Shown here: in pieces, positions 1,978 through 53,195 of the stretch
How positions within the stretch are numbered: position 1 is the first letter of the stretch
Layout of the letters: the number at the start of each line of letters is the position of its first letter
NCBI GenBank assembly: GCA_002238445.1
Contig: MPML01000008.1
Location: forward strand, 45,599 to 109,598
Direction of reading: 5' to 3'
DNA from: Caldilineaceae bacterium bin5
GTDB taxonomy: Bacteria > Chloroflexota > Anaerolineae > Caldilineales > Caldilineaceae
Length of the DNA: 64,000 nt
Program-made: the position numbers and the translations under genes
Notes under the pieces: model-generated
Seen by the model: the letters and a program-made list of their open reading frames with translations, nothing else
What the model was told of the DNA's origin: nothing
Databases searched by the model: none

Positions 1978-2061
1978 CACAGTGATGATCGGTTAGAGCA
2001 GTGGATTGGAAAGAGCAGACAGACTAGACAATTTCATCAATTGCCGCGAAGCGCGCCAGAA

Positions 2062-4638
2062 ATGGAGAGTCCCATGAATCCAGTCTCCCCACATTTCACG
2101 ACCGTTGATCTGTCGAATTTCTTTAATGCTGAACGCGCCGGGCTTCCTGAACAACTGCGCGTGCCCTCATTGGTTGAAGACAGGACGGGCGCAACCGCCT
2201 TCAACGGAATCCCCTTTTTGCTCGGTGGGTTCGAAGGCCCTGCCGTAATCCTGCTGGACGCGGAACCGGTGACTGTTGAACTGGGGGAAGGACTGGCAAC
2301 ATATGTCGTCTTCCTGCACGCGGTGGCCGATCGCGTCACCAACTACCTCGACGGTTTCGCGGACTTCGCACAGGACGGGAACGAACTGGGCGACCACGTC
2401 TCTTCCTATGTCTTTGAATACGAGGACGGCAGCCGCCATGAAACGCCGATACGGCGTCGATTTGGCATCCAGCAGAGCCGGGTTGTGTGGGGGGGCAGCC
2501 CCTTCGAAACGGTGCCGGCGATGAAGGCTACGGTCTTCAATTCGGCGACGGAGGAGACCCAGTTGGGGCGGGTTCCAGTCAATGACTACGGCCGCGGCGA
2601 AACGCGCACCAGCTCCGGGCGCGATCAGATGGAAGAGAAGATGTGGCTGTACGCGTTGGAGAACCCGCATCCCGACAAGCCGATCCGCCGCCTGGTTTTG
2701 CAGCCGCGCAACGAGGGGTCGACTATCTACGCGATCAGCCTGACGAACGTGGATGAGCATCCGCTGCGGCCGGGCGTGCGCCGCAAGCTGCGGCTGACGC
2801 TGCCGGAGGGTGTCGAGTTCAACGCGATTGACGAGTACGAGGACCTGGCTATCGATCTGGGCTATGTCATTTCCGCGCGCGCGGCGTTTGATTATGACGG
2901 CGGGCGCTGGCTGGGTGAGGAAGCGAACGTGCAGCCGGCGGTATCGCAGCGGGATCTGATCGTCGAGTACAGCGCGCATCCGCAGGCGTGGCTGCACGTC
3001 GGCGTCGACAGTGACGAGCCGATTGTCTATGACCTGTCGCAGCTTGAGGACGGCCAGCCTGGGGACACCATCGTTGGGGTAGCGCCGGCCCACCGGCTGG
3101 TCGACGTGCGCGTGGTGCAGAAGGGGACCAACAACCTGGTGCCGGTGCGGATTCATTTTCACGGTGAGCACGGCGAGTATCTGCCGCCGCGCGGCCGCCA
3201 TCGCAAGGTGAATCCGCACTGGTTTGAGGACAACTACGGTGAGTTCGTGAACGGCCGCAACCAGTATTGCTACATCGACGGCCATTGCGAGGTGGATATG
3301 CCGTTGGGCGAGGTGTTCGTGGAGATCACCAAGGGTTATGAGACGGCGCCGATTCGCAAACAGGTCACGATTGCGGCCGACACCGATGAACTGGTCTTCG
3401 AGTTGGAACGGGTGCTACCGTGGCGGGAAAAGGGCTGGGTGACTGCGGATACGCATGTTCATTTTCTGAGCCCTTCGACGGCGCTGCTGGAGGGTCAGGC
3501 CGAGGACGTGCATGTTGTGAATCTGCTGGCCAGCCAGTGGGGCGAGATGTTCAGCAATGTCAGCGACTTTGACGGCAGGACAACGTTGGGGGCGCGCGAG
3601 TTCGGCGGCGACGGCGAGTTTCTGGTGCGGGTGGGAACTGAGAACCGCATGCAGATACTCGGTCACATTTCGCTGCTGGGATACAACGGCAAGATGATCC
3701 ACCCGCTTTGCAGCGGCGGCCCGTCGGAGTCGGCGCTAGGTGATCCGCAGGAGGTGGTGATGGCCGAGTGGGCGCAGCGCTGCATTGACCAGGGCGGGCT
3801 GGTGGTGATGCCGCACGCGCCGAACCCGCAACTGGAGCGGGCGGCGGATATCGTGCTCGGCCTGATCCATGCGATTGAAATGATGACATTCAACCCCTGC
3901 GAACGGGAGCTCAACCCGTACGGCATCGCCGACTGGTACCGTTATCTCAATCTGGGGTATCAGCTGCCGATCGTGGGCGGCTCGGACAAGATGGCGGCTT
4001 CGTCGCAGCTGGGCGGCGTGCGTACTTATGCGCATCTGGGGGAGCGGGAGTTCACGTACGAGAGCTGGATGGAGGCGGTGCAGGCCGGCAACACTTTCAT
4101 GACGATCGGTCCGCTGGCGGCGTTGACAGTAGAGGGCGTGGCGCCGGGTGGGCAGGTGCAGTTGCCGGTTGGCGGCGGGAGTGTGGGCGTCGACTGGCGG
4201 GTCGAGTCGGTGCTGATACCGATCGAGCAGGTGGAGGTGATCCAGGGTGGGCTGGTGGTCGACCAGGTAGACGTACAAGGCGAATACAGCGCGTCGGGCA
4301 GTGTGCAGGTTGCGGTTACGGGTTCCTCGTGGATCGCGCTGCGGGTGCGGGGCAGTTATACCGGCGCGGAGGGTGAGATCGCAGCGCATACGAGCGCGGT
4401 GCAGACATTGGTGGGGGATAGCCCGCTGTTCAGCGAGGCGGACGCTTCGGCGGTGTTGGAGCAGATCGAGGGCGCGATGGCCTATGTGGACACGATCGCG
4501 CCGCGGCCGAATGCGCAGCGTTTTCGGGAGATGCGGGCGGTGCTGGAAGCGGCGCACAACCGATTGCATCAGCGGATGCACGCGCACGGCGTCTATCACA
4601 ATCATACGCCGGTGCACGGACATGGGAACGGGGAGTAA
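2062..4638 (+). CDS. large metal-dependent hydrolase, CehA/McbA (PHP-like) family C-terminal domain with uncharacterised N-terminal half
   Basis: 865-aa ORF. Has WVTADTHVHFLSP (H-x-H metal motif) and later GGSDKMA, typical of PHP/CehA-type metallohydrolases. Start ambiguous: TTG 2041, ATG 2062, or ATG 2074 (preceded by GGAG). Confidence 0.7.
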   Translation: MESPMNPVSPHFTTVDLSNFFNAERAGLPEQLRVPSLVEDRTGATAFNGIPFLLGGFEGPAVILLDAEPVTVELGEGLATYVVFLHAVADRVTNYLDGFADFAQDGNELGDHVSSYVFEYEDGSRHETPIRRRFGIQQSRVVWGGSPFETVPAMKATVFNSATEETQLGRVPVNDYGRGETRTSSGRDQMEEKMWLYALENPHPDKPIRRLVLQPRNEGSTIYAISLTNVDEHPLRPGVRRKLRLTLPEGVEFNAIDEYEDLAIDLGYVISARAAFDYDGGRWLGEEANVQPAVSQRDLIVEYSAHPQAWLHVGVDSDEPIVYDLSQLEDGQPGDTIVGVAPAHRLVDVRVVQKGTNNLVPVRIHFHGEHGEYLPPRGRHRKVNPHWFEDNYGEFVNGRNQYCYIDGHCEVDMPLGEVFVEITKGYETAPIRKQVTIAADTDELVFELERVLPWREKGWVTADTHVHFLSPSTALLEGQAEDVHVVNLLASQWGEMFSNVSDFDGRTTLGAREFGGDGEFLVRVGTENRMQILGHISLLGYNGKMIHPLCSGGPSESALGDPQEVVMAEWAQRCIDQGGLVVMPHAPNPQLERAADIVLGLIHAIEMMTFNPCERELNPYGIADWYRYLNLGYQLPIVGGSDKMAASSQLGGVRTYAHLGEREFTYESWMEAVQAGNTFMTIGPLAALTVEGVAPGGQVQLPVGGGSVGVDWRVESVLIPIEQVEVIQGGLVVDQVDVQGEYSASGSVQVAVTGSSWIALRVRGSYTGAEGEIAAHTSAVQTLVGDSPLFSEADASAVLEQIEGAMAYVDTIAPRPNAQRFREMRAVLEAAHNRLHQRMHAHGVYHNHTPVHGHGNGE

Positions 4639-7171: not shown

Positions 7172-7450
7172 ATGCCACAGACGCCGGTCGGTGAAAGAGA
7201 ACAGGCGACGCCAGCAACCCGAATAGAAGACACTTCGTCCGAGTCACCTGTTCGCCAGGAGGGGCCAGTCATAGGCATTTTCTGGGAATCTCCCGCTTTG
7301 GAAGAACTGGCGCGCGCGCAGAACGTCCAACCATTGACTGATGTGCAGGTTCTGTTTGGCACGTGGCCGGGCGACGAAGATGACGGCTTTGAAGAGGCAG
7401 TTTACAATCTTCGACATGCTGTCAGCGCGAATAGTGGCCGTCGAGAATGA
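7172..7450 (+). CDS. putative antitoxin partner of the PIN toxin (VapB-like, family unassigned)
   Basis: 92-aa ORF whose stop overlaps the PIN gene start (ATGA at 7447-7450). Acidic C-terminal LFGTWPGDEDDGFEEAV segment resembles antitoxins paired with PIN proteins. Confidence 0.6.
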   Translation: MPQTPVGEREQATPATRIEDTSSESPVRQEGPVIGIFWESPALEELARAQNVQPLTDVQVLFGTWPGDEDDGFEEAVYNLRHAVSANSGRRE

Positions 7451-7866
7451 GTGTTGACACACTCATTCTCGACACGAACATCGTCTCGTACCTGATGAAG
7501 GGCGGACCGCTCGGGCGAGCATATCAACCGCATGTCCAGAATCATCTGCTTGCCATCAGCTTTATCACCGTTGGAGAGCTTTACTTCGGGGCGGAGAAAG
7601 GCAACTGGGGTAAGAGCAGGCGGAATGAACTCGAAGCGATCATTCGCAGATTCGTAATCATTCCTTACGACCATGAGGTTGCGCGCTGCTACGGTCGATT
7701 GGTCGCCGAGCGGCAGCGGGCCGGAAGACCGATTGCGCCCAACGATGCCTGGATTGCTGCCTGCACTGTGCGGCACGCCGTGCCTCTAGTTACCCACAAC
7801 CCCAAGGATTTCCAAGGTATAACATCTCTTCAGGTAGTCTCGGAGTCTGCTTCGACAGCGCACTGA
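7447..7866 (+). CDS. vapC: type II toxin VapC (PIN-domain ribonuclease)
   Basis: 139 aa. LILDTNIVS (first acidic PIN residue), NDAWIAA and THNPKDF motifs. Confidence 0.9.
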   Translation: MSVDTLILDTNIVSYLMKGGPLGRAYQPHVQNHLLAISFITVGELYFGAEKGNWGKSRRNELEAIIRRFVIIPYDHEVARCYGRLVAERQRAGRPIAPNDAWIAACTVRHAVPLVTHNPKDFQGITSLQVVSESASTAH

Positions 7867-9470: not shown

Positions 9471-9543
9471 AACCTACTCTGGGGCGAGGCGTCCCACGAC
9501 CTGCGTTCGTTTCCAGGGTCTTTTACTGGAATAGGGGCTGAAG

Positions 9544-10548
9544 ATGGAAGCATACACAAGCGAACTGACCGGGGCGGCGACCTTTGACGCGAAACGGGCC
9601 ATCCTGAGCAAACGAGATATGTTCCGGCCGCTGGCTGTGCAGCGCACGGAGGGGCTGGCCGACGCGTTGAGACGCAAGAAAGTCCGCGGGGAGACGCCGC
9701 TGCTGGTGCTGGAACGGGACGGCGCGGCGTTGACGCTGCTCACCAGCCAGATGATCTTTCACCATGTGGCGCAGGGTGAGTGGAACGGAACACCGATTCT
9801 CGCCACTTTCTGAGCGCCGTGCAACAGCGGCGTCAGTCTGACGCCGGTACTTGACGGGGAAACTTACACTTTTGCGACGCGGGGCCTCTATAACGGCATG
9901 TCGCTGATGGGTGATCACCAGACGGGCTCTTATTGGGATCACGTCACAGGCGAATGTCTTCATGGACCGCTCAAGGGGCGGCGTCTCGAACTGGAGCCGC
10001 TGCGGCATATGCAGGCGGACCAGGCGCTGGCGCAGTTCCCGGAAGCGCGAATCGGGCTGTCACGGCTGCCGCTGCCTTTTGGTTTGGCGGCGGGCCTGAT
10101 GAAGGTCCTGGTGCGATTGACCAGGGGACGCTTTTTGCCGCCGGGTTTTGCGGGCTCGATGGGTGCGGAAGATCCACGGCGGCCGCGCCTGGAGATGGGG
10201 CTGGGCGTCTGGACAGAGAGGGTCAGCCGGTATTATCCGCTCGGAGTTCTCAAGGCGCGGGGCGGCGTGTTGTTCGACGTCATCGACAGCAAGAATATGC
10301 TGATCTACCTTGACCCGGTGTCTGGCACGCCGGCGCCGCTCTTCGCCGATGGGCAGGATGCCGAATGGGATGGCAGCGACCTTCGCATGGAGGACGGCGC
10401 GATTGTTCGCAACGGCAGGCTTTACGATCCCTCGGGAGAGGAGTTACCCACTGAACAGCCGTTGCACCTTTTTGCTCGCTGGTACGGCTTCTCGCTGACC
10501 TTTCCGAATTGCGAGATCTATGGGGAGGCGGGCGAAGGAAGCGGATGA
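9544..10548 (+). CDS. DUF3179-family protein with one in-frame UGA (9811-9813): candidate selenocysteine codon; alternatively a nonsense-disrupted pseudogene
   Basis: Track ORFs 9544-9813 and 9898-10548 share a frame and are separated only by the TGA. Read-through gives contiguous DUF3179-like core ...GTPILATF[U]APCNSGVSLTPVLDGETYTFATRGLYNGMSLMGDHQTGSYWDHVTGECLHGPLKGRRLELEPL... Confidence 0.6.
9828..9846 (+). promoter_or_regulatory. SECIS-like stem-loop 14 nt downstream of the in-frame UGA
   Basis: Perfect 8-bp stem CGGCGTCA / TGACGCCG with GTC loop. The apex CAGUCUG resembles the CAGGUCUG apex of the E. coli fdhF SECIS. Confidence 0.4.
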
Positions 10549-12775: not shown

Positions 12776-12932
12776 GGGCGGGAACTGTATGGAGCCTTGC
12801 GGCGCGAGAGGCTCTGCTGGATTAGGTTGGAAGGGAGTGGGGCCTGCAATGGCACGCTCTTCGCTGCGATGACCCCCGTTGAATCCACAAACTTTGGCAC
12901 GGATGCCGCAGAACGAAATCAGGAGGCGAGGA

Positions 12933-14714
12933 ATGACAACCAACGTCGCTGCTGACGCATATCAGCGCATTGCGAGTGTCACAGAAGTCACAGAAGTCGG
13001 CCTGCATACGGTCCAACTTAACGGCCACGTCGTCGTTCTCGTTCATCACGAGGGCGAGATTTACGCGCTCGACAACCGCTGCCCGCATATGGGCTTTCCG
13101 CTGGACAAGGGCAGTGTCCATGATGGAATTCTGACGTGCCACTGGCATCACGCCCGTTTTGATCTGTGCACGGGCGGCTCTTTTGATCTGTGGGCGGACG
13201 ACACGCCCAACTTCCCGGTGGAGGTGCGGAACGGTGATGTATTTGTTGATGTCACGCCGCGGCACGATCCGGTGGAACATCAACGCAAGCGGCTGGCAGT
13301 CGGCCTGGAGCGCAATCTTTCACTGGTGGTTGCCAAGGCGGCGATTACGCTGGTGGATGAAGCCGGAGACACGTTGACTCCCTTCGCCGCGGGCCTGGAT
13401 TTCGGCACCCGCTACCGGATGGAGGGCTGGGGTCAGGGGCTGACGATGCTCACCTGTTTCCAGAATCTTCTGCCCAGCCTGGGACGTGAGGACCGGGCGC
13501 GGGCGTTGGCGCACGGCTTGGCGGCGACCGCGTCTGATTCGGCCGGCAGTTCACCGCGCTTCCCGGTAACGCCTCTGCCCGACGGCAGCCCGGATCTGAA
13601 GACGCTGAAGCAGTGGTTCCGCCGCTTCATTCTGGTGCGGGATGCCGAGGGGGCGGAGCGGTGCATCGTTACAGCCTTAGAGGCCGGCGCGAGTCCGCGG
13701 GAGATGGCAGATATTCTGTTCAGTGCGGCGACAGACTTCCGCTATATCGATATTGGACATCCGCTGGACTTTACGAACAAGGCGTTTGAAGCGCTGGAAA
13801 TTGTCGGTTGGGAGAAGGCGGAAGCTGTTCTGACCAGCCTGGTGCCGGGCTATGCTGGGGCAAGACGGATGGAGGAGTCCAACGCGTGGCGCAATCCGAT
13901 AGATCTGATCGATCTGTTGGGCGAAGCGCGGGCGCAGATTCCTGACGCGCTTGCGACAGGTCAGGCGCAGCGCGGGCGCTGGGCGGGGCGCGCGGGGCTG
14001 GTGTCGGTATTGCTGACCGATGATCCGCAGGCGATTGCAGACGCGCTGCTTGGGGCGTTGCGAGCCGGGGCCAGCGAGGTTGAACTGGCGGCAGCGGTCA
14101 CCTATGCGGCGGCGCTGCGGATTGCCCGCTTCCACACGAGCAATGAGTTCGGCGACTGGGACACGGCTATGCACACTTTCACCTTCGCGAACGCGGTCCA
14201 TCAGGGTTTGCGGCGTTTGGAGGGGTACGAATCGCCGGACGAATATTTGCTATTGCTGCGGGGTGTTTTCGACGCGGCGATGAGCATCTATCTCGACCGC
14301 TTTTTGAACATTCCCGCGGCCAGGCTGCCGGCGGCTTCCGGCAGCAACGGGACGGCGCCTCCACTGCCGGCGCTGGCGGAAATGCTGGATCAGCAGCAGC
14401 AGGTGAACCAGGCCGGAAACGCGGTGGGCGGCTACCTCTTCCATGGCGGCGACTCGGCCGCGCTGCGGGCAGAGCTGGGCGCGCTGCTGCTGCGAGAAGA
14501 CCGCGACTTCCATACGATTCAGTGTGTGGAGGCGGCCTTCCGTCAGCATGATCTGCTGTCTGCCGAGGCGGAATCACAGGAGGAGGCGGTTCTTGTGCTG
14601 GTGGCGGCAGCCCGCTACCTGGGCGCGCACGCGCCGACGATGCGGGCCCAGGGCCAGACCTTTGGCATTGCGCGCCGGCTGCATCGCAACGAGAAGCTGT
14701 TCGAGGGAGAGTAA
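12933..14714 (+). CDS. Rieske [2Fe-2S] domain protein fused to a large (about 480 aa) uncharacterised helical C-terminal domain
   Basis: CPHMGFPL...CHWHHARF is the Rieske C-x-H...C-x-x-H ligand pattern. AGGAGG lies 6 nt upstream of ATG 12933. Confidence 0.85.
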   Translation: MTTNVAADAYQRIASVTEVTEVGLHTVQLNGHVVVLVHHEGEIYALDNRCPHMGFPLDKGSVHDGILTCHWHHARFDLCTGGSFDLWADDTPNFPVEVRNGDVFVDVTPRHDPVEHQRKRLAVGLERNLSLVVAKAAITLVDEAGDTLTPFAAGLDFGTRYRMEGWGQGLTMLTCFQNLLPSLGREDRARALAHGLAATASDSAGSSPRFPVTPLPDGSPDLKTLKQWFRRFILVRDAEGAERCIVTALEAGASPREMADILFSAATDFRYIDIGHPLDFTNKAFEALEIVGWEKAEAVLTSLVPGYAGARRMEESNAWRNPIDLIDLLGEARAQIPDALATGQAQRGRWAGRAGLVSVLLTDDPQAIADALLGALRAGASEVELAAAVTYAAALRIARFHTSNEFGDWDTAMHTFTFANAVHQGLRRLEGYESPDEYLLLLRGVFDAAMSIYLDRFLNIPAARLPAASGSNGTAPPLPALAEMLDQQQQVNQAGNAVGGYLFHGGDSAALRAELGALLLREDRDFHTIQCVEAAFRQHDLLSAEAESQEEAVLVLVAAARYLGAHAPTMRAQGQTFGIARRLHRNEKLFEGE

Positions 14715-17599: not shown

Positions 17600-18874
17600 T
17601 CAGACAACCTCCCCTTGCAGCCGCGCTTTGAGTTGCGCCCAAGGGCTGCGTTGCAGCGACTCGATGGCATCACCGGAATCGTCTTCTTCCTTATGGAACA
17701 GGATATTCAGCCGGTCGCCTTCGTACTTGGCGCCGTCGATCTTCAACCGCGCCAAGCCGATCGGCAGAGCGATGTTGCGTTTCCAGTTGCCGATGCGGAC
17801 GATCAGCTCGTCGACGACGCTGCGGTGGAGGTTTACCTCTTCTTTGGCGACCAGAGGAAGGGCGATGCTGAGGATGTAGTGGCCGTCGCGGGCGAAGATT
17901 TTCTGCGGTTCGCCCTGATAGTAGAGGCGGGTGGGGTCACCATGCCCACCGCGCTCCGGTACTTCTCCGAAAATCGTCGCGGCCATGCGTTGGAGCATTT
18001 TCTGTCCCAGGACTTCCTCGTCGAAGAAGGGAATTCGGGAGATGGGAAGGGGGTGGAAGGCTTCTTCGACGAAGGCCAGATTGCGCTGCTGCGCTTCGAT
18101 CCAACCGCTAAAGTAGGCTTCTTTCAGTTCCTGGGGGAAGACCCGATTGCAGACAACGGAATCGACGGCGTAGCCATAGAGGTTGAGGTAGGCGTAGGCG
18201 CGCTGCGCCTCCTTGATTACCATCTTCTCCGGATTGATCACAAGCCGCATGCTGCTGATTGTACTATCGCTCAGGAGGAGGCTGGTGCGCTCGAGCACGT
18301 TCACCAGATCTTCGACGCTCTCGAACAGGTCGTCATCCGGCAGAGGGATATCGCTCATACGGGACATGATGGGGCGGGCGATCTGCAGGGTTCGGCGTTC
18401 GAAGGGCATGATTTTCTCGATATACCAGCGAGCGATATCGGGGAAACTGAGCAGTTGCAAGGTGGACCCGGTGGGTGCAGCGTCAATGATAATCGTGTCG
18501 TACTTGCCGCTGTCGGCCAGATGTGTAATGTGCATGAGGCTGGCGAGCTCCACCATTCCCGGCAGAACTGACGTCTCTTCAGCGACCAGAGAATCCATGC
18601 CGCGCCAGGAGAAGAGTACATTGAGATAGTCCTGCACGCGCCCCCAGTACTTGTCCATCTGATGGAGCAGATCGATCTCCTGTCCCCAGAGATTGGGCGC
18701 CAATTCCACCAACTCACTGCCGATGCGGGTGTCGAAACTGTCGCCAAGACTGTGGGCGGAGTCGGTGCTGAGCACGACGGTGCGGTAGCCCAGTTGGGCG
18801 CAACGGAGGGCGCAGGCCGCGCTGACACTCGTCTTGCCGACCCCGCCTTTGCCCGTATAAAGCAGAATACGCAT
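17600..18874 (-). CDS. ArsA/GET3-family anion-transporting/targeting ATPase
   Basis: MRILLYTGKGGVGKTS deviant Walker A and STDSAHSLGD (ArsA signature DTAPTGH-type region APTGSTL). Confidence 0.9.
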   Translation of the reverse strand: MRILLYTGKGGVGKTSVSAACALRCAQLGYRTVVLSTDSAHSLGDSFDTRIGSELVELAPNLWGQEIDLLHQMDKYWGRVQDYLNVLFSWRGMDSLVAEETSVLPGMVELASLMHITHLADSGKYDTIIIDAAPTGSTLQLLSFPDIARWYIEKIMPFERRTLQIARPIMSRMSDIPLPDDDLFESVEDLVNVLERTSLLLSDSTISSMRLVINPEKMVIKEAQRAYAYLNLYGYAVDSVVCNRVFPQELKEAYFSGWIEAQQRNLAFVEEAFHPLPISRIPFFDEEVLGQKMLQRMAATIFGEVPERGGHGDPTRLYYQGEPQKIFARDGHYILSIALPLVAKEEVNLHRSVVDELIVRIGNWKRNIALPIGLARLKIDGAKYEGDRLNILFHKEEDDSGDAIESLQRSPWAQLKARLQGEVV

Positions 18875-26567: not shown

Positions 26568-27971
26568 TCAGCGCTGCTGGATGCCGCCTTCGGTCAGTTT
26601 GCGGGGATCGAGCAGTTCATCGAGTTCGGCGGCGCTGAGGTCGGTCATCTCCAGGGCGACCTCTTTGAGGGTGCGTTCCTGGGCATAGGCGGTCTTGGCG
26701 ATTTGTGCGCCCAGTTCATAGCCAATCACCGGATTCAGGGCGGTCACCAGAATCGGATTGCGGTCTACGAGCTGGCCGATGCGCTCTGCATTCACTGCGA
26801 AGCCGGCGATGGCTCTGTCTGCCAGGAGACGGCTGGCGCCGGCCAGAATTGAGATGCTCTGCAGCAGGTTGTAGGCGATGACAGGGAGCATGACGTTCAG
26901 TTGAAAACTGCCTGACTGTCCTCCGATTGTAATCGTCAGGTCGTTTCCGGTTACCTGGGCGGCGACCATGGTGACCGCTTCAGGAATGACCGGATTGATC
27001 TTGCCTGGCATGATGCTGCTGCCTGGCTGCAGGGCAGGAAGCTCGATCTCGCCGAAGCCGGCAATCGGCCCGCTGTTCATCCAGCGCAGATCATTTGCCA
27101 TCTTCATGAGCGAGGTCGCGATCGTCTTGAGTTGACCGCTCATCTCCACAGAGGCATCCTGGCTGCTGAGACTTTCGAAGTAGTTTTCGCTTGTCCTGAA
27201 GGGCTGCGCTGTCATGGCGGCGAGTTTGGCGGCAATACGCTCACCGAATTCAGGATGAGCATTGATGCCGGTGCCGACGGCGGTACCGCCCTGGGCAAGC
27301 TCTGCCAGCCGCGCCAAGGCGTCGCGCAGCCGGCGCTGTCCTTTGTCGATCTGGTTGCTCCAGCCGCCCAGTTCCTGGCTGAGGCGGACAGGCATGGCAT
27401 CCATAAGATGGGTGCGCCCGGTTGTGACGACGTCGTCCACCTCTGCGGCCTTGGCGTCGAGTGTTTGCTGGAGGTGCTGCAGAGCGGGCAAGAGTTCCTC
27501 GACAACGGCGAGATAGGCGCTGACGTGGATAGCAGTGGGAATGACATCGTTGCTGCTTTGCCCCATATTGACATGATCGTTAGGGTGAACGCTGCGGCCG
27601 AGGGTGCGGGATGCCAGGGTAGCGATCACTTCATTGGCGTTCATGTTTGTGCTGGTGCCGGAGCCGGTCTGGAAGATATCGAGCGGGAAATGGGCGTCGT
27701 GGGCGCCGTGGGCGACTTCGGCGCCGGCGTTCTGAATTGCGGCCGCCATTTCGGCGTCGATCTGACCTAGATCGAGATTGACAGCGGCGGCCGCGCCTTT
27801 GATCAGCCCGATGGCGCGGATAAACTGCCGGGGGAAAGACAACGGGCTAATGGGGAAGTTGTCGACGGCTCGCTGGGTTTGGGCTGCATAGAGAGCATCT
27901 TGCGGTACTTTTACTTCGCCGAGGCTGTCATGCTCGATGCGATATTCCTGTCCACACATAAGAATTTTCAA
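26568..27971 (-). CDS. fumC: class II fumarate hydratase
   Basis: 467 aa with the GSSIMPGKINP signature (GSSxMPxKxN) and overall FumC/aspartase family architecture. Confidence 0.95.
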   Translation of the reverse strand: MKILMCGQEYRIEHDSLGEVKVPQDALYAAQTQRAVDNFPISPLSFPRQFIRAIGLIKGAAAAVNLDLGQIDAEMAAAIQNAGAEVAHGAHDAHFPLDIFQTGSGTSTNMNANEVIATLASRTLGRSVHPNDHVNMGQSSNDVIPTAIHVSAYLAVVEELLPALQHLQQTLDAKAAEVDDVVTTGRTHLMDAMPVRLSQELGGWSNQIDKGQRRLRDALARLAELAQGGTAVGTGINAHPEFGERIAAKLAAMTAQPFRTSENYFESLSSQDASVEMSGQLKTIATSLMKMANDLRWMNSGPIAGFGEIELPALQPGSSIMPGKINPVIPEAVTMVAAQVTGNDLTITIGGQSGSFQLNVMLPVIAYNLLQSISILAGASRLLADRAIAGFAVNAERIGQLVDRNPILVTALNPVIGYELGAQIAKTAYAQERTLKEVALEMTDLSAAELDELLDPRKLTEGGIQQR

Positions 27972-37908: not shown

Positions 37909-38187
37909 GCAGGATGCTCCTGAGCTGTGGGGGGAGGAAGCGGTGCGCGCAAAGTCGGCCTGTGGCATGCTGCCAAGGGGGTGAACGCGTCGATTATTTG
38001 GTTAAGCGCGAGAGAGACAGCGAAACTGATCGGGGATAAGGATGGTATAAATCCGGGTTCAGGAGGGATATCATCCATGGATTAGATCGCAGACCGGGGC
38101 AGATTGATGTCTGCGCACATTGTATCACAAGGTAGCGGGTTGTCCAGAAGAGAAGTTTTCTTTAGTGGAGTGTTAAAGAAAGAGGAG

Positions 38188-38303
38188 GTTGGCAGCGGTC
38201 TACTCTCACACGGGGTCGCCCCCGCACTACCATCGACGCTGGTGGACTTTACGACCGGGTTCGGGATGGGACCGGGTGTTTCCCCACCGCTCTTGCCACC
38301 AAC
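38188..38303 (-). rRNA. rrf: 5S ribosomal RNA
   Basis: The reverse complement reads GTTGGTGGCAAGAGCGGTGGGGAAACACCCGGTCCCATCCCGAACCCGG...GAGAGTAGACCGCTGCCAAC, with the conserved CCCATCCCGAAC and GAGAGTAG blocks and a terminal helix. Confidence 0.85.
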
Positions 38304-38486
38304 TCCTCTATTCTTGCACGGTTATGATGCGAGTGGATGTTGTGCATATTGTGGTATTTGTCGTGGCCGCTGCGTTCTGGTGCAGGGGCGCTGGCAAAGG
38401 TCCACTCGCATGGGCACAGCAGATATATTGACACACTAAGAACTGAACAGGATTGAGAAGTACTGCTTTAGGCGCAAGATACACAC

Positions 38487-41425
<2,939 letters not shown>

Positions 41426-41678
41426 TGCTGTGTGTCGAATACAACGACCTCGCAGCCGCTGCATTCCTTCCTACTCCTACAGCAGTTCTTCTCTATCCTA
41501 TTCAGTTCTTAATGTGCCATTCCTGCTGGACTACTTTACTACTTGCTCTGCAACCTTCTGGCAGACGGCCGGCCGATTGACTTCCGACCTTCCGCATTGT
41601 TCCAGCCGGGCCTGTCAGGGCCTTGGCTTGCTGCCATCGTCAGCGTTTGCGAATTCTGCTTGCTTTTGCTTAACGAGG

Positions 41679-41752
<74 letters not shown>

Positions 41753-41897
41753 ATTCCACTTGCCCTTTTGATGCAACAGAGGCACGTTAACCCCTGAAAA
41801 GTGGCAAGATAGTCGTATCCTGTGCAAACCTTGCTGCTGCAGACGTTTCTGTTTCTACAACGGCTTTGCCGTCTCCACAGTGACGTCCGGTCTTCCT

Positions 41898-43422
<1,525 letters not shown>

Positions 43423-43798: not shown

Positions 43799-44296
43799 CT
43801 ATCCGATTACGATCAGTACTGCGTCCTGTTCAACGCTCTGGCCGGCGGTGACTTCTACTTTACGCACCACGCCCGAGCGCACGGCGCGAATCTCATTCTC
43901 CATTTTCATTGCTTCCAGGATCATCAGCGGTTGATCTTCGATGAGCTCATCGCCATCTTGCACCAGCACTTTCACGATCATGCCTGGGATAGGGGCTCTG
44001 ACGGCCAGGTCGCCCTGTGGCACTGCCGGCCCTTGGCGGCCTGCATTGAGGCGCCGCGTGCGTTCATCTTCTATCTGCACACGGAACTGCTCACCCCGAA
44101 GCGTCACGTCATGGCCCTGCGGTGTTTCCTCGACCAGCATTTCGAAACTTGCGCCGTCCAACAGCAGGCTGTATAGCTGGGTAACGCCACTCTGGCGCAG
44201 GTCGACGGTGATAGGTTCGCCGTCGACCAACACTTCATCCTCGTTGATCTCAATTTCAAAGGTATGGTCGCCGACACTGGAAAAGTATTTCACCAC
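43799..44296 (-). CDS. biotin carboxyl carrier protein-like (biotin/lipoyl attachment domain)
   Basis: 165 aa with EAMKMENEI biotinylation motif. The start overlaps the biotin carboxylase stop. Confidence 0.85.
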   Translation of the reverse strand: MVKYFSSVGDHTFEIEINEDEVLVDGEPITVDLRQSGVTQLYSLLLDGASFEMLVEETPQGHDVTLRGEQFRVQIEDERTRRLNAGRQGPAVPQGDLAVRAPIPGMIVKVLVQDGDELIEDQPLMILEAMKMENEIRAVRSGVVRKVEVTAGQSVEQDAVLIVIG

Positions 44297-45798
44297 CGCC
44301 CTCCCATCCCCCTCAGGCGGCCGGCCTCCTTCCAGGGGCTGGCGGCGTTGTTATCGTTCCCACCGATATTGACGGCGCGGCGGCCCTCTTCATGCGCCAC
44401 CAGCGCGGCGGCAACGGCTGCGATACGCGCCTGCTCCAGGTCGGGTTCATTTCTTGCCACCAGCCGGCGACGGTCGAGGAATCCGGTATCGAATGTTCCC
44501 CAGATAAATTCGGTGCTGTCCATAATTTCCTGATGGAATGGTATCGATGTTTTGATGCCACTGATGCGATATTCGTTCAGGGCGCGGCGCATACGCAGGA
44601 TCGCTTCGGCCCTGTTTTCGCCCCATACGATCAGTTTGGCGACCATGGGATCGTAGAAAAGGCTGATTTCGTAGCCGCGGTAGAGTGCGCTTTCGACGCG
44701 CACACCTGGTCCGGTGGGCTCTTTGAGGTAGGTGACGACGCCGCTGTTGGGCATGAAATTGTTGAAAGGGTCCTCGGCGGTAAGGCGGCACTCAATCGAC
44801 CAGCCCTTGGGCCGGATATCTTCGGGACGGTAGCGCATGCGACGGCCGGCGGCGATGGTCAGCTGCTCTTTGACAATATCGACCCCGGTCACGAATTCGG
44901 TGACCGGATGCTCCACCTGGAGCCGGGTATTCATCTCGAGAAAGTAGAATTTATCTTCCTTGGCATCGAACAGGAATTCAATGGTGCCGGCGTTGACATA
45001 TTCCACCGACTCGGCGGCGGCCACGGCAACGCGCCCGAGTTCCTGGCGCAGGTTTTCGTCGACGGCGACGCTGGGCGCCTCTTCGATAAGCTTCTGGTGC
45101 CGGCGCTGGATGGAGCATTCCCGCTCGCCGAGGTGAATTGTATTGCCGTAACTGTCGGCGAGGATCTGCACTTCGATGTGGCGGGCGCTGGAGATGTATT
45201 TTTCGAGGTAGACCTCGCCATTGCCGAAGGCGCCAATGGCTTCGCGCCTGGCAGCCAAAAGGGCGCTTGTAAACTGGTTGGGGTCGTGAACCACGCGCAT
45301 CCCTTTGCCGCCGCCGCCGGCGGTGGCCTTGATCATCAGGGGGAACCCGATCTGGATGGCGGTCGCTCTTAGTTCTTCATCTCGCATGCCCTTGGGCGAA
45401 CCGGGCACGAGCGGCACATTGTTTTTGGCGACGGTTTCGCGCGCGGTCTGTTTGTCCCCCATTTTGGCGATGGCATCGGGTGACGGCCCGATAAATGTAA
45501 TGCCGACGTCTGCGCAGGCGGCGGCGAATTCGGCGTTTTCTGCCAGAAAGCCGTAGCCGGGGTGGACAGCATCAACGCCGGCCTTGCGCGCCACATCGAT
45601 TATCTTATCAATGCGCAGGTAGCTGTCGCGGCTGGGGGCCGCGCCGATATGGTAGGCCTCATCGGCGTAGCGTACGTGAAGGGCAGTCCGGTCCACGTCT
45701 GAGAAGACGGTAGCAGTGGCGATGCCCCGCTCTTCACACGCCCGCAACACCCGCACGGCGATTTCGCCTCGATTCGCAACCAGAACTTTCTTAAACAT
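44290..45798 (-). CDS. accC: biotin carboxylase subunit of acetyl/acyl-CoA carboxylase
   Basis: MFKKVLVANRGEIAVRVLRAC N-terminus, ATP-grasp GGGGKGM loop, EMNTRLQVEHPVTE motif. Confidence 0.95.
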   Translation of the reverse strand: MFKKVLVANRGEIAVRVLRACEERGIATATVFSDVDRTALHVRYADEAYHIGAAPSRDSYLRIDKIIDVARKAGVDAVHPGYGFLAENAEFAAACADVGITFIGPSPDAIAKMGDKQTARETVAKNNVPLVPGSPKGMRDEELRATAIQIGFPLMIKATAGGGGKGMRVVHDPNQFTSALLAARREAIGAFGNGEVYLEKYISSARHIEVQILADSYGNTIHLGERECSIQRRHQKLIEEAPSVAVDENLRQELGRVAVAAAESVEYVNAGTIEFLFDAKEDKFYFLEMNTRLQVEHPVTEFVTGVDIVKEQLTIAAGRRMRYRPEDIRPKGWSIECRLTAEDPFNNFMPNSGVVTYLKEPTGPGVRVESALYRGYEISLFYDPMVAKLIVWGENRAEAILRMRRALNEYRISGIKTSIPFHQEIMDSTEFIWGTFDTGFLDRRRLVARNEPDLEQARIAAVAAALVAHEEGRRAVNIGGNDNNAASPWKEAGRLRGMGGRW

Positions 45799-50596: not shown

Positions 50597-50822
50597 ATGG
50601 TATCGGGCGACTCTTCTGATGGCGGCGCTTTCCTGTGCCAGCTGGGGGCCTATTGAATTGCTTGCTCCCCGGCTTCCACGGCTTGCGATCATGATCTCCG
50701 TTCTTGCAGACAGGTCCCGGTGTAGAGATCGGTGTAAAGATCATTGGCCTTCTTTGGCGTAGGGGGTATCATTAAAAGAATTCACTCTTTTGATTGATGG
50801 CCCACAACAACCTACTTTTGCT

Positions 50823-52163
50823 ATGAATTTGCCCTTTGAGTCATCCGTACGATTTCAACTTGTGCAAACGCCGGCGCCGAGGGACGCTCCGCACGAGCGC
50901 CCGCCTGGTCCCCCGAAGGCGCAACAGCGCTGGATGGCCTTCGTGATCTTAATTGCGTTCGGTTGGCGGATGGTCGGCCTGATTGCGCGGAAGCTTGTCC
51001 AGGTGGAGCAGGATACGATTCTGCTAGCGGCCCGCCCGATAGGCGAGACGGTTGGGGCGCTGGTGGCGCCGGAGCAGAATGGGACGATCTATTATCTTTT
51101 GATGCGCCCGTGGCTCCAGTTCTTCGGAACCGATCTCTTTGCGCTGCGTTATTTTTCTGTGTTGGCCAGCGCTATCGCTATCGCCTTGATGTGGCAGGTC
51201 GCCCGTCGGATGGTGCCGGCAGTTGGCAGCACGCTTCTGATGAACCTGCCGCTGCTGTCAACCCTTTTTCTGGCCTTCAATCCATTACAGCTGTGGTATA
51301 GCCAGGAGGGGGGGAGCTATGCGCTGGTTGTGGCACTGGCGCTGTTATCGAGTTGGGGCTGGCTGCAGGCGATGTGGTACAGCGGATATGTGCGCTGGCT
51401 GATCTATCTTGTCATCACATCAATAGCTATCTATACGCAGGTGATGACTGCCTTGCTGCTGCCGGTCCATCTGGTCTGGTTTTTGCTGGCCAACCCGCTC
51501 AACCGGCAACGCTGGAAAGGATACGGGCTTACGCTGGTGGGCTTTGCGCTACCGATCCTGCCATTGACAGGGTGGGGCGGACACCTGTTGACCGGGGGAG
51601 CTAACGGGATCGACCCGGGAAGCGGCAGCGTGCTGCAGAACGTCGTTAGCGACCTGCCCGCCACGCCTCTACCAGAGATTGCCCGAACCCTGCTGCTCAA
51701 CAATGCCCAGGGCTTTCTGGGCTCGATTTCGCATTTCTGGCTGATCCCGATCTTCTTTCTTGGATTGACCGGTTTGCTGGTGGGGTATACGGAATTTGGA
51801 GGGCGCGTTGCAAACGTGGGCATGCTGGCGACCTGGCTGATTCTGCCGGTTCTGCTGCTGTACGTCATCAGTCTGGTAGCGCCGATTTTTTCGGGGCCCA
51901 CAGCTCAGATCGGAGAGAGAGCAGCCCAGTTCGAGGGTGTTATCTGGATTGCGCCGGCGTTTACGATGTTCCTGGCGTTGGGGGCACAGGTGATGCGTCG
52001 CGCCTATGGAAAGCTGGGCAATTGGCTGGCGCTGGGGCTGATTGCCTTTGTGATGGTGTTTTGGGGATATAGCTGGTTGGAACATGCCCAACGTCCCATC
52101 AACACGCAATCGGGCGCGTCTGAGTCCTCCCTCCACTCATGGCGCGGTTACCTGGAGATGTGA
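50823..52163 (+). CDS. polytopic membrane protein, GT39/ArnT-like (PMT_2) glycosyltransferase family (putative)
   Basis: About 11 hydrophobic segments. The N-terminal loop pattern (...Y..L.R.W...FG.....LR..S.L......) is reminiscent of ArnT/PMT-type glycosyltransferases. Start uncertain (50790 TTG, 50823 ATG). Confidence 0.6.
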   Translation: MNLPFESSVRFQLVQTPAPRDAPHERPPGPPKAQQRWMAFVILIAFGWRMVGLIARKLVQVEQDTILLAARPIGETVGALVAPEQNGTIYYLLMRPWLQFFGTDLFALRYFSVLASAIAIALMWQVARRMVPAVGSTLLMNLPLLSTLFLAFNPLQLWYSQEGGSYALVVALALLSSWGWLQAMWYSGYVRWLIYLVITSIAIYTQVMTALLLPVHLVWFLLANPLNRQRWKGYGLTLVGFALPILPLTGWGGHLLTGGANGIDPGSGSVLQNVVSDLPATPLPEIARTLLLNNAQGFLGSISHFWLIPIFFLGLTGLLVGYTEFGGRVANVGMLATWLILPVLLLYVISLVAPIFSGPTAQIGERAAQFEGVIWIAPAFTMFLALGAQVMRRAYGKLGNWLALGLIAFVMVFWGYSWLEHAQRPINTQSGASESSLHSWRGYLEM

Positions 52164-52164
52164 T

Positions 52165-52875
52165 ATGTTTCAAGGGTCTGGCGGGCGGGGCTGGAACGCC
52201 CTCTCCCGCACGCAGCAGATTGTAATTGGGATCGTGGGGCTAGTGGTTGTGTATGCGCTACTGTCCGGGGGCGGTTCTCTGGGGCGAATGGGCGATCCGT
52301 TATGGCTCGTCGCGGTCGCGGTAATCATTCTGGTTGCCTTACCTGTCCACGAAATGGCGCATGCGGCCATGGCGGTCCAATTGGGAGACGAGACGCCGCG
52401 CTTGCAAGGGCGTTACACGTTCAATCCGATCGCCCATATCGATCCTTTCGGCGCTCTGCTGATCCTTTTTACGGGATTTGGTTGGGCCAAACCGGTCCAG
52501 TGGAATCCCAACAACATCGACGTGGACATACGGCTGGGGACGATTCTTGTGGCTGCAGCCGGACCTGTCAGCAATCTCGTGCTGGCTGCGGTGGGCGCCT
52601 TTCTGGTTCCATTTGCCGACTTCGCGATGCTGGAGCGATTTCTCACCTTTTTCGTCTGGATCAACACGTTGTTGTTTGTATTCAATCTGATTCCGATTCC
52701 GCCGCTGGATGGCTCCCATATTCTGTTTGCCCTTCTGCCCGGAGACAATTTCGAACTGCGCATGTTCCTGGGCCGCTTCGGTTTTATCATTTTGATAGGA
52801 ACCATCTACCTCGGGGGCGGCTTCATCACCGGCCTGGCCAGTCAGGTTGTTGGGTGGCTTTTTCTCATTTTCTGA
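52165..52875 (+). CDS. site-2 protease (M50) family membrane metalloprotease
   Basis: HEMAHA (HExxH) within a TM segment and a later NLIPIPPLDGS motif. GGAG lies 7 nt upstream of ATG 52165. Confidence 0.85.
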   Translation: MFQGSGGRGWNALSRTQQIVIGIVGLVVVYALLSGGGSLGRMGDPLWLVAVAVIILVALPVHEMAHAAMAVQLGDETPRLQGRYTFNPIAHIDPFGALLILFTGFGWAKPVQWNPNNIDVDIRLGTILVAAAGPVSNLVLAAVGAFLVPFADFAMLERFLTFFVWINTLLFVFNLIPIPPLDGSHILFALLPGDNFELRMFLGRFGFIILIGTIYLGGGFITGLASQVVGWLFLIF

Positions 52876-52902
52876 AGTTGAAATTCAGTTTCCGGATTTT
52901 GG

Positions 52903-53195
52903 GTAAGTACTAGGCCACATACAGTGTCTTTCTTATCCAGCCCTTCATTCCCGCCGCCATTCAGACTATGTCACAGCGTATTCGGTTGGCAACCGCCGGG
53001 TTGCCGAGGCAGCACGGCTGCGCTGAAGACGTAAGGTCGATGAGGCATGGTTTTGGAGGGGGGCGTTGCGGGGGCGCAGCCCCTGCACAAGGGAGGCCGC
53101 TTGCGGCCGACCGCCCAAATGCAAGGAGAGAGTAAACAACTCCGCTCGCCTTGCTCGAGGACAGGGATGCCGGTTGCGGCGTTCGATTTGCGGCA
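52903..53195 (+). repeat. MITE-like repeat, copy 5 (right terminus apparently truncated)
   Basis: Left end GTAAGTACTAGGCCACATACAG (52903-) and core 53046-53115 are collinear with copies 1 and 4. Hairpin 2 is the GGCCGCTTGCGGCC variant shared with copy 1. The right TIR was not found after TGCGGC (53189-53194). Confidence 0.55.

Follow-up and report, generated by a model that had tools for sequence, protein, structure and literature searches.

A mis-annotated DUF3179-family gene of Caldilineaceae with an in-frame UGA and a conserved downstream hairpin is very probably a selenoprotein gene

We analysed a 64,000-nucleotide stretch of DNA from a Caldilineaceae (Chloroflexota) genome (the window; contig MPML01000008.1) and found that positions 9544–10548 of its forward strand, which public gene calls break up at an internal stop codon, very probably form a single functional gene, whose product is a DUF3179-family selenoprotein of 334 residues. 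The sequence comparisons strongly support the reading that this internal stop, TGA 9811–9813 at codon 90, encodes selenocysteine (Sec), guided by a conserved RNA hairpin immediately downstream that resembles a bacterial selenocysteine insertion sequence (SECIS).

One gene interrupted by a single UGA

The open reading frames (ORFs) at 9544–9813 and 9898–10548 lie in a common frame, 354 nt apart. Translation of 9544–10548 gives 334 codons and a terminal TGA (10546–10548), and meets one internal stop, at codon 90; its immediate context is ...ILATF, stop, APCNSGVSLTPVLDGETYTFATRG..., and the longer read-through context is ...GEWNGTPILATF, stop, APCNSGVSLTPVLDG.... If the stop is taken as Cys, the translation matches PF11376 (DUF3179) with E = 2.7e-20 and 73.4 bits, against a gathering cut-off of 27. 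The match covers residues 47–170 and runs across the stop. An earlier note on this DNA, made from the sequence without database searches, had described two same-frame ORFs interrupted by this TGA only and a DUF3179 core continuous across it, and both observations hold. The Pfam match is limited to the N-terminal half of the protein (profile positions 22–146 of 292), and no NCBIfam model matched the read-through protein. A signal peptide-like N-terminus is absent, and the N-terminal sequence MEAY..ELT.AA is kept in Caldilineaceae orthologues. UGA also ends genes in the window that are complete by Pfam, namely fumarase (26568–27971), biotin carboxylase (44290–45798) and a carboxyl transferase, and there is therefore no genome-wide reassignment of this codon.

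On contigs identical to the window, the locus is called as an 89-residue ORF without a Pfam hit and a 216-residue ORF with a weak DUF3179 hit. The latter, at 9898–10548 on the forward strand, has an internal Met as its start and does not contain the U-x-x-C motif. A search of 5.8 billion proteins returned 41 relatives, of which the 22 closest (P0001–P0022; 58–90% identity) are 209–233 residues long and span only the C-terminal 62–69% of the query. Some more distant calls start one or two residues past the UGA column (VVCNSG..., VCNSG..., MPCNSG...), as expected of a gene caller that encounters an in-frame TGA. Public calls also split or shorten the selenoprotein gene at loci L081–L084, and no public call that we saw for close relatives annotates a selenoprotein: all are truncated fragments. 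We conclude that public gene calls systematically truncate this gene.

The UGA occupies a conserved Cys column

Five full-length relatives (P0023, P0024, P0027, P0028 and P0032; 323–334 residues, 34–42% identity) align with the read-through protein from end to end and carry F-C-x-x-C-N-[SA]-G where the window has F-stop-A-P-C-N-S-G. Across the full-length homologues, which are 320–335 residues long, the motif at this column is F-C-x-x-C-N-[SAT]-G. The UGA thus replaces the first Cys of a C-x-x-C pair, as the earlier note had proposed; the family motif that it gave, (T/V)YCPLC, was absent from the relatives examined, whose x-x residues are variable (AP, VV, PV, VI, AI and others). Among 1.84 billion representative proteins, searched exhaustively, 1,328 relatives reach E ≤ 0.001, and 109 reach E ≤ 1e-30. 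Full-length proteins with F-C-x-x-C-N-x-G account for 43 of 147 newly listed representatives, and many others begin just after the column. The family is large and includes Sec as well as Cys forms.

We then scanned GTDB at one genome for each species, which gave 276 relatives, kept the best 80 loci and located the column in each of these by tblastn. The codon is TGA in 79 of these 80 and TGC in one (L066, Aggregatilineales). Within Chloroflexota the TGA-bearing genomes are 32 Caldilineaceae, Anaerolineales and another Chloroflexota metagenome-assembled genome (MAG). Outside this phylum they include many Gemmatimonadota/Longimicrobiales, Acidobacteriota (Vicinamibacterales, Terriglobia), Thermodesulfobacteriota and Desulfobacterales, together with Planctomycetaceae, Myxococcales and Calditrichia. 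All 79 Sec-form orthologues have U-x-x-C, and the partner residue in the U-A-P-C of the window, Cys93 (codon 9820–9822, forward strand), is Cys in 79 of 79 aligned orthologues. Either TGC or TGT stands at the UGA column in L066 and L085–L090. In all 80 genomes no stop interrupts the frame over the 60 codons before the TGA or the 200 codons that follow it. Against 14 Caldilineaceae orthologues, the ratio of non-synonymous to synonymous substitution rates was 0.13–0.35 over the 89 codons before the TGA and 0.05–0.21 over the 100 codons after it.

The UGA is followed by a covarying hairpin

The SECIS-type hairpin lies within the coding sequence at 9828–9846 (forward strand), with its 5′ arm at 9828–9835, a GUC loop at 9836–9838 and its 3′ arm at 9839–9846. 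RNAfold gives a perfect 8-bp stem beginning 14 nt past the TGA and covering codons 95–101 (SGVSLTP), at the exact coordinates at which the earlier note had placed an 8-bp stem with a GUC loop. The conserved core comprises 7 bp (9829–9835 with 9839–9845), and the conserved apex reads C-(A/G)-G-U-N-U-G.

We compared the hairpin with the SECIS of E. coli fdhF, read from NC_000913.3, in which the UGA is followed by CACGGCCCAUC and then GGUUGCAGGUCUGCACC; the corresponding sequences in the window are GCGCCGUGCAACAGC and then GGCGUCAGUCUGACGCC. In both genes the hairpin lies directly 3′ of the UGA within the ORF and forms a 17-nt upper stem-loop with a C-A-G-(G)-U-C-U-G apex that presents G-U (GCAGGUCUGC in fdhF, UCAGUCUGA in the window), so the apex resemblance that the earlier note had pointed out is real when checked on the E. 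coli sequence. The two differ in the loop, which has 3 nt (GUC) in the window and 4 (GGUC) in fdhF, and in the bulged U, which the window helix lacks. The loop G-U also lies one codon further from the UGA, at positions 26–27 from its U in the window as against 23–24 in fdhF.

Conservation of the hairpin was assessed in an ungapped alignment of 72 distinct orthologous sequences, from −6 to +54 around the TGA, in which columns 24–31 and 35–42 correspond to 9828–9835 and 9839–9846. Standard pairs occupy 93.6% of the cells, whereas sliding the 3′ arm by 1–3 columns reduces this to 31–48%. The covariation score is 0.327, compared with 0.156 after shuffling, and was reached by none of 500 shuffles; changes on both sides are seen in five of the eight hairpin pairs, and RNAalifold independently gives the inner seven. 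Most information comes from the pair between the third positions of the Gly96 codon (GGN) and codon 100, because both sites are synonymous and have no protein-level reason to covary. These positions are paired in 70 of the 72 sequences against 35.7 expected (0 of 20,000 shuffles), as CG, GU, GC, AU or UG. The Val97 codon is GUC in 63 of 64 cases, and residues 97 and 100 change jointly, as GUC(Val)/ACN(Thr), AUC(Ile)/AUY(Ile) or ACC(Thr)/GUU(Val), because their codons pair with each other. Since the hairpin sits inside the coding sequence, it constrains the encoded peptide S-G-V-S-L-T-P.

The helix also distinguishes Sec from Cys forms. Among the 79 Sec forms the loop is GUC in 48, GUU in 15, GGA in 10 and GUA in 5 (78 of 79 together), all seven core pairs are formed in 72, and the mean free energy of the hairpin slot is −10.6 kcal/mol. 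Six Cys-form genes (L066, L085 and L087–L090) have 3–6 of the seven core pairs, with slot energies of −0.8 to −6.7 kcal/mol. Across orthologues, then, the hairpin is kept with the TGA. The covariation, the slid-register control and the weak or absent helix in Cys forms argue that selection acts on the hairpin as an RNA element that goes with the TGA, and bear out the SECIS-like interpretation that the earlier note had put forward. On established bacterial Sec biology, such a hairpin, with its loop G-U 26–27 nt from the UGA, would recruit SelB, which would deliver Sec and allow translation to continue past the UGA.

The Cys form in the Aggregatilineales MAG CBDFFR010000001.1 (L066, position 10244; TGC, CGLCNGG), the only one among the best 80 relatives, has a helix core reduced to 5 of 7 pairs and could be a Sec-to-Cys reversion within Chloroflexota.

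Weighing of alternative explanations

Several points weigh against decoding of the UGA as Sec. The fold of the single sequence is unexceptional (z = −1.43 for a 71-nt segment), and because of this the case must rest on other genomes. Many of the 72 aligned sequences are related, so the shuffle statistics overstate their independence; this relatedness does not touch the slid-register control, the count of pair types or the contrast with Cys forms. No Rfam family matches the hairpin in a search of 9760–9920 at a permissive threshold, the matches to CcsR1, mir-622 and weev_FSE in that segment being below the gathering score and due to chance. ARAGORN and Rfam found no tRNA-Sec in the 64-kb window (tRNA-Ile only), and neither Pfam searches of about 35 large window ORFs nor the annotation of identical contigs gave SelA, SelB or SelD; that the source genome decodes Sec is something we infer. 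In the literature we found no experimental selenium incorporation for any DUF3179 protein. Finally, the chemistry proposed below for the protein derives solely from the motif, predicted secondary structure and weak fold matches.

The search for the Sec machinery was extended to related loci. ARAGORN found no tRNA-Sec on any fetched locus. When E. coli SelA, SelB and SelD served as tblastn queries, the window and the flanks of 85 loci yielded one match only, a SelB-like sequence in L038 that Pfam identifies as TypA/BipA. A cluster at 26.5–32.1 kb of the window, suggestive of sel genes by size, consists of fumarase, two branched-chain permeases and a histidine kinase. Slaby et al. (2017, PMC5649159) reported SelA together with SelB in most bins of sponge symbionts, and Table S4 of that study, its columns counted against the header, gives SelA = 2, SelB = 1 and SelD = 1 for each of Caldilineaceae bin5 and bin34. 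Selenoproteins in Chloroflexi were already reported in 2006 (PMC1794560). Several of the closest MAGs have names in the style of sponge metagenomes (SB066x, RHO2, COS1), which, judged from the names only, fits the published enrichment of SelA and SelB in sponge symbionts.

A recent TGC-to-TGA nonsense mutation in a Cys-type DUF3179 gene, the pseudogene alternative that the earlier note had raised, would need a single-base change and would present itself as the two ORFs that public gene callers show. Its probability is nevertheless negligible, as TGA stands in the same column of 79 of 80 species-level genomes from several phyla, both halves of the gene are under purifying selection with no further stop or frameshift in any of the 80, and the covarying hairpin goes with the TGA and is missing from Cys forms. 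A sequencing or assembly error at 9813 has nothing in its favour beyond being a general possibility and is scarcely conceivable here. One JGI metagenome contig is identical to the window (100.0%) over 18,158 bp and a second is 99.99% identical over 17,410 bp, 12 contigs (JGI, ENA and Logan samples) carry the exact 216-residue fragment, TGA 9811–9813 recurs in contigs from four independent samples, and 31 other Caldilineaceae genomes also have the TGA. Two closed Caldilineaceae MAG chromosomes (OZ220684.1 and OX638330.1) are about 96% identical to the window at the nucleotide level.

The UGA might also be recoded or bypassed without Sec, either through hairpin-stimulated near-cognate read-through (inserting Cys or Trp) or through termination and reinitiation, giving an 89-residue product and a separate C-terminal part. 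Downstream hairpins can stimulate read-through in general, and Sec machinery was not found in the window or the locus flanks, but we consider this explanation highly unlikely. Every homologue without the TGA has Cys at the UGA column, a classic Sec/Cys signature; the hairpin is like bacterial SECIS elements, fdhF included, in its position, size and G-U apex; and related sponge Caldilineaceae bins encode SelA, SelB and SelD. Two polypeptides are unlikely in view of the 28-codon stretch that separates the TGA from the next ATG, which holds the invariant C93, N94, G96, P101, F110 and G114, and of the two halves making up one Pfam domain and one predicted fold. That the hairpin is a by-product of the conserved S-G-V-S-L-T-P peptide and high G+C is extremely improbable, even though the region encodes conserved residues at a G+C of about 60–65% and the single-sequence z-score is weak. 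The best-covarying pair joins synonymous third positions (paired in 70 of 72 sequences versus 35.7 expected), Val97 keeps its GUC codon, and the amino-acid changes are complementary (Val/Thr, Ile/Ile, Thr/Val), whereas Cys forms encode similar peptides (CNAGMSFSP, CNSGVVFSS) at similar G+C and have no helix.

A probable further member of a catalogued selenoprotein family

The earlier note had taken the gene for a candidate new selenoprotein. The family is, however, already tabulated as a predicted selenoprotein: the entry 'DUF3179 domain-containing protein, pfam11376, UxxC/T' appears in selenoprotein family tables published in 2022 (PMC9312934) and 2026 (PMC13188914), both of which cite Zhang & Gladyshev, NAR 2007 (PMC1976440). 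The 2026 inventory combines experimentally validated families with computationally predicted high-confidence candidates, and its table lists DUF3179 below the 'experimentally verified' block. One DUF3179 protein also appears in a table of another paper (PMC9230427), without any information on function. The gene in the window has the catalogued motif, as U90-A-P-C93 in a DUF3179 domain. A bacterial SECIS is described as a stem-loop directly 3′ of the UGA (PMC9312934) whose apical loop carries a conserved G (PMC1976440, Fig. 5 legend), and the window has a 7–8-bp helix 14–15 nt past the UGA, which covaries and is not intact in Cys forms. We conclude that the DUF3179 selenoprotein family is not new and that the gene in the window is a mis-annotated further member.

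With the catalogued family the gene shares the Pfam domain, the U-x-x-C motif, the pairing of Sec and Cys forms and the stem-loop after the UGA, and four relatives with 44–48% identity (L033, L035, L037 and L039) come from Thermodesulfobacteriota or 'delta proteobacterium' MAGs, the group of the family's first report. It differs in coming from Caldilineaceae and in belonging to an apparently cytoplasmic subfamily of about 330 residues, which we call divergent because only its N-terminal half matches the Pfam profile. The representatives given in the reviews (MBW1804167.1 and MDJ0986319.1) may belong to this orthologous group or to a separate Sec-bearing DUF3179 subfamily. What is new here is modest: a Caldilineaceae member, the near-fixation of Sec (79 of 80) in the ~330-residue subfamily, quantified covariation of the SECIS-type hairpin and the systematic truncation in public data.

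The finding does not amount to a new category, since both the DUF3179 family and the UxxC Sec motif are catalogued already. It does correct an annotation in which the gene is split into an 89-residue orphan ORF and a 216-residue fragment without the active-site motif, and because this split is routine, selenoproteome surveys of Chloroflexota, Gemmatimonadota and Acidobacteriota under-count the gene. The DUF3179 gene implies that this Caldilineaceae lineage decodes Sec. Retention of Sec in 79 of 80 species-level genomes suggests that the protein does not readily dispense with selenium, and the protein is thus a reasonable choice for learning what DUF3179 proteins do.

Predicted fold and possible chemistry

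Invariant or near-invariant residues in the 79 orthologues include H73, H74, Q77, G78, F89, U90, C93, N94, G96, P101, D124, W131, H133, D210, R212, W223, R312 and W313. The remaining cysteines are less conserved (C138 in 42 of 79 and C323 in 46 of 79). A sequence-profile search of the PDB gave no relative of known structure at E ≤ 1. An AlphaFold2 model was made of the full-length Cys homologue P0023, which is 42% identical to the window protein; the model is of high confidence, with a predicted local distance difference test (pLDDT) score of 86.5 and a predicted template modelling (pTM) score of 0.84. The modelled protein is β-rich, with two β-domains; C82 of its C-x-x-C ends strand 78–82 and C85 lies in a four-residue turn that leads into strand 87–92. 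In the model, then, the C-x-x-C forms a predicted β-hairpin 'knuckle' and not the N-terminus of a helix as in thioredoxin.

The U-x-x-C dyad, with Sec in place of the first Cys, is shared with thioredoxin, DsbA-like and Prx-like selenoproteins and is the usual layout in redox-active selenoproteins, whereas the position of the motif on a strand–strand turn of a β-rich predicted fold is unlike that in thioredoxin-fold oxidoreductases. A Foldseek search of the P0023 model against the PDB gave no match at E ≤ 0.001. No thioredoxin, Dsb or peroxiredoxin is described among the top 50 matches, and a thioredoxin fold was rejected. The sole local matches of high probability are Rieske-type, to 5cxm_A (PetC3; 0.95), 3gce (carbazole dioxygenase ferredoxin; 0.87) and 5bok (0.80); these are weak, with E = 0.12–0.27 and template modelling scores of 0.42–0.50 over about 90 residues.

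The motif and the model suggest, at low confidence, that the active centre is most likely the selenol/thiol pair Sec90/Cys93. Our preferred reading, which we put at about an even chance, is that this pair would act as a selenenylsulfide redox couple. The pair might instead form a metal-binding knuckle, a reading to be taken seriously, although we would give it rather less than an even chance. That Sec90-x-x-Cys93 ligates a metal or iron–sulfur centre in a Rieske-like β-domain, together with His73/His74 and His133, seems unlikely. As in Rieske [2Fe-2S] domains, residues of ligand type would lie on β-hairpin loops, but the C-x-H...C-x-x-H signature of those domains is absent, the invariant set in DUF3179 being H73, H74, U90, C93, D124, W131 and H133, and hhalign against the Rieske domain encoded in the window itself found no profile similarity (probability 0.13). 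If such a Rieske-like site did exist, this widespread and nearly always Sec-bearing group, which includes aerobic Caldilineaceae and Gemmatimonadota, would be a new class of seleno-metalloprotein.

Genomic neighbourhood and other features of the window

The selenoprotein gene is preceded by an aldose epimerase gene and followed by genes for an SDR protein and an MFS transporter. This neighbourhood is not conserved across phyla: among 52 non-redundant loci, no neighbouring gene family is shared by more than 8, and the top neighbour 'cluster' is an antisense ORF over the DUF3179 gene itself. That ORF (9523–10008, reverse strand), with equivalents in 14 loci, is a by-product of high G+C and sense-strand conservation.

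We also searched the window for a second selenoprotein. There are 57 in-frame TGAs with an open frame on both sides, and a filter for SECIS-shaped structures leaves only the one at 9811 convincing. The one candidate at the level of genes, the ORFs at 50790–52163 and 52302–52913 (forward strand), shares a frame across TGA 52161, after which a GC-rich, foldable stretch follows; we regard this TGA as an ordinary stop, the sequence past it looking non-coding and having a fold z-score of −0.2. The 457-residue ORF at 50790–52163 has a sub-threshold match to PMT_2 (glycosyltransferase). Two further forward-strand ORFs in a common frame, 814–1977 and 2041–4638 (387 and 865 residues, without Pfam hits), are separated by a TGA and 63 nt. 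No hairpin follows that TGA (free energy of the next 60 nt, −5.0), public calls give two genes, and the two are probably merely adjacent.

The window carries a complete rRNA operon on the reverse strand (38187–43422), with 16S at 41902–43422, tRNA-Ile(GAU) at 41677–41752, 23S at 38486–41425 and 5S at 38187–38303; in the 16S–23S spacer we found tRNA-Ile only and no tRNA-Ala. Two genes upstream of the selenoprotein gene, a 92-residue ORF (7172–7450) overlaps a 139-residue PIN-domain ORF (7447–7866) by 4 nt on the forward strand, and the pair looks like a VapBC-type toxin–antitoxin system; in L085, too, a PIN gene is found close to the Cys-form homologue. Three genes downstream, in a position kept in Caldilineaceae, a 611-residue protein (12879–14714, forward strand) has an N-terminal Rieske [2Fe-2S] domain (residues 30–100) followed by about 500 residues without a Pfam match. 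About 7 kb downstream of the selenoprotein gene, 17600–18874 on the reverse strand encodes an ArsA-type ATPase with a C-terminal ArsA_HSP20 domain.

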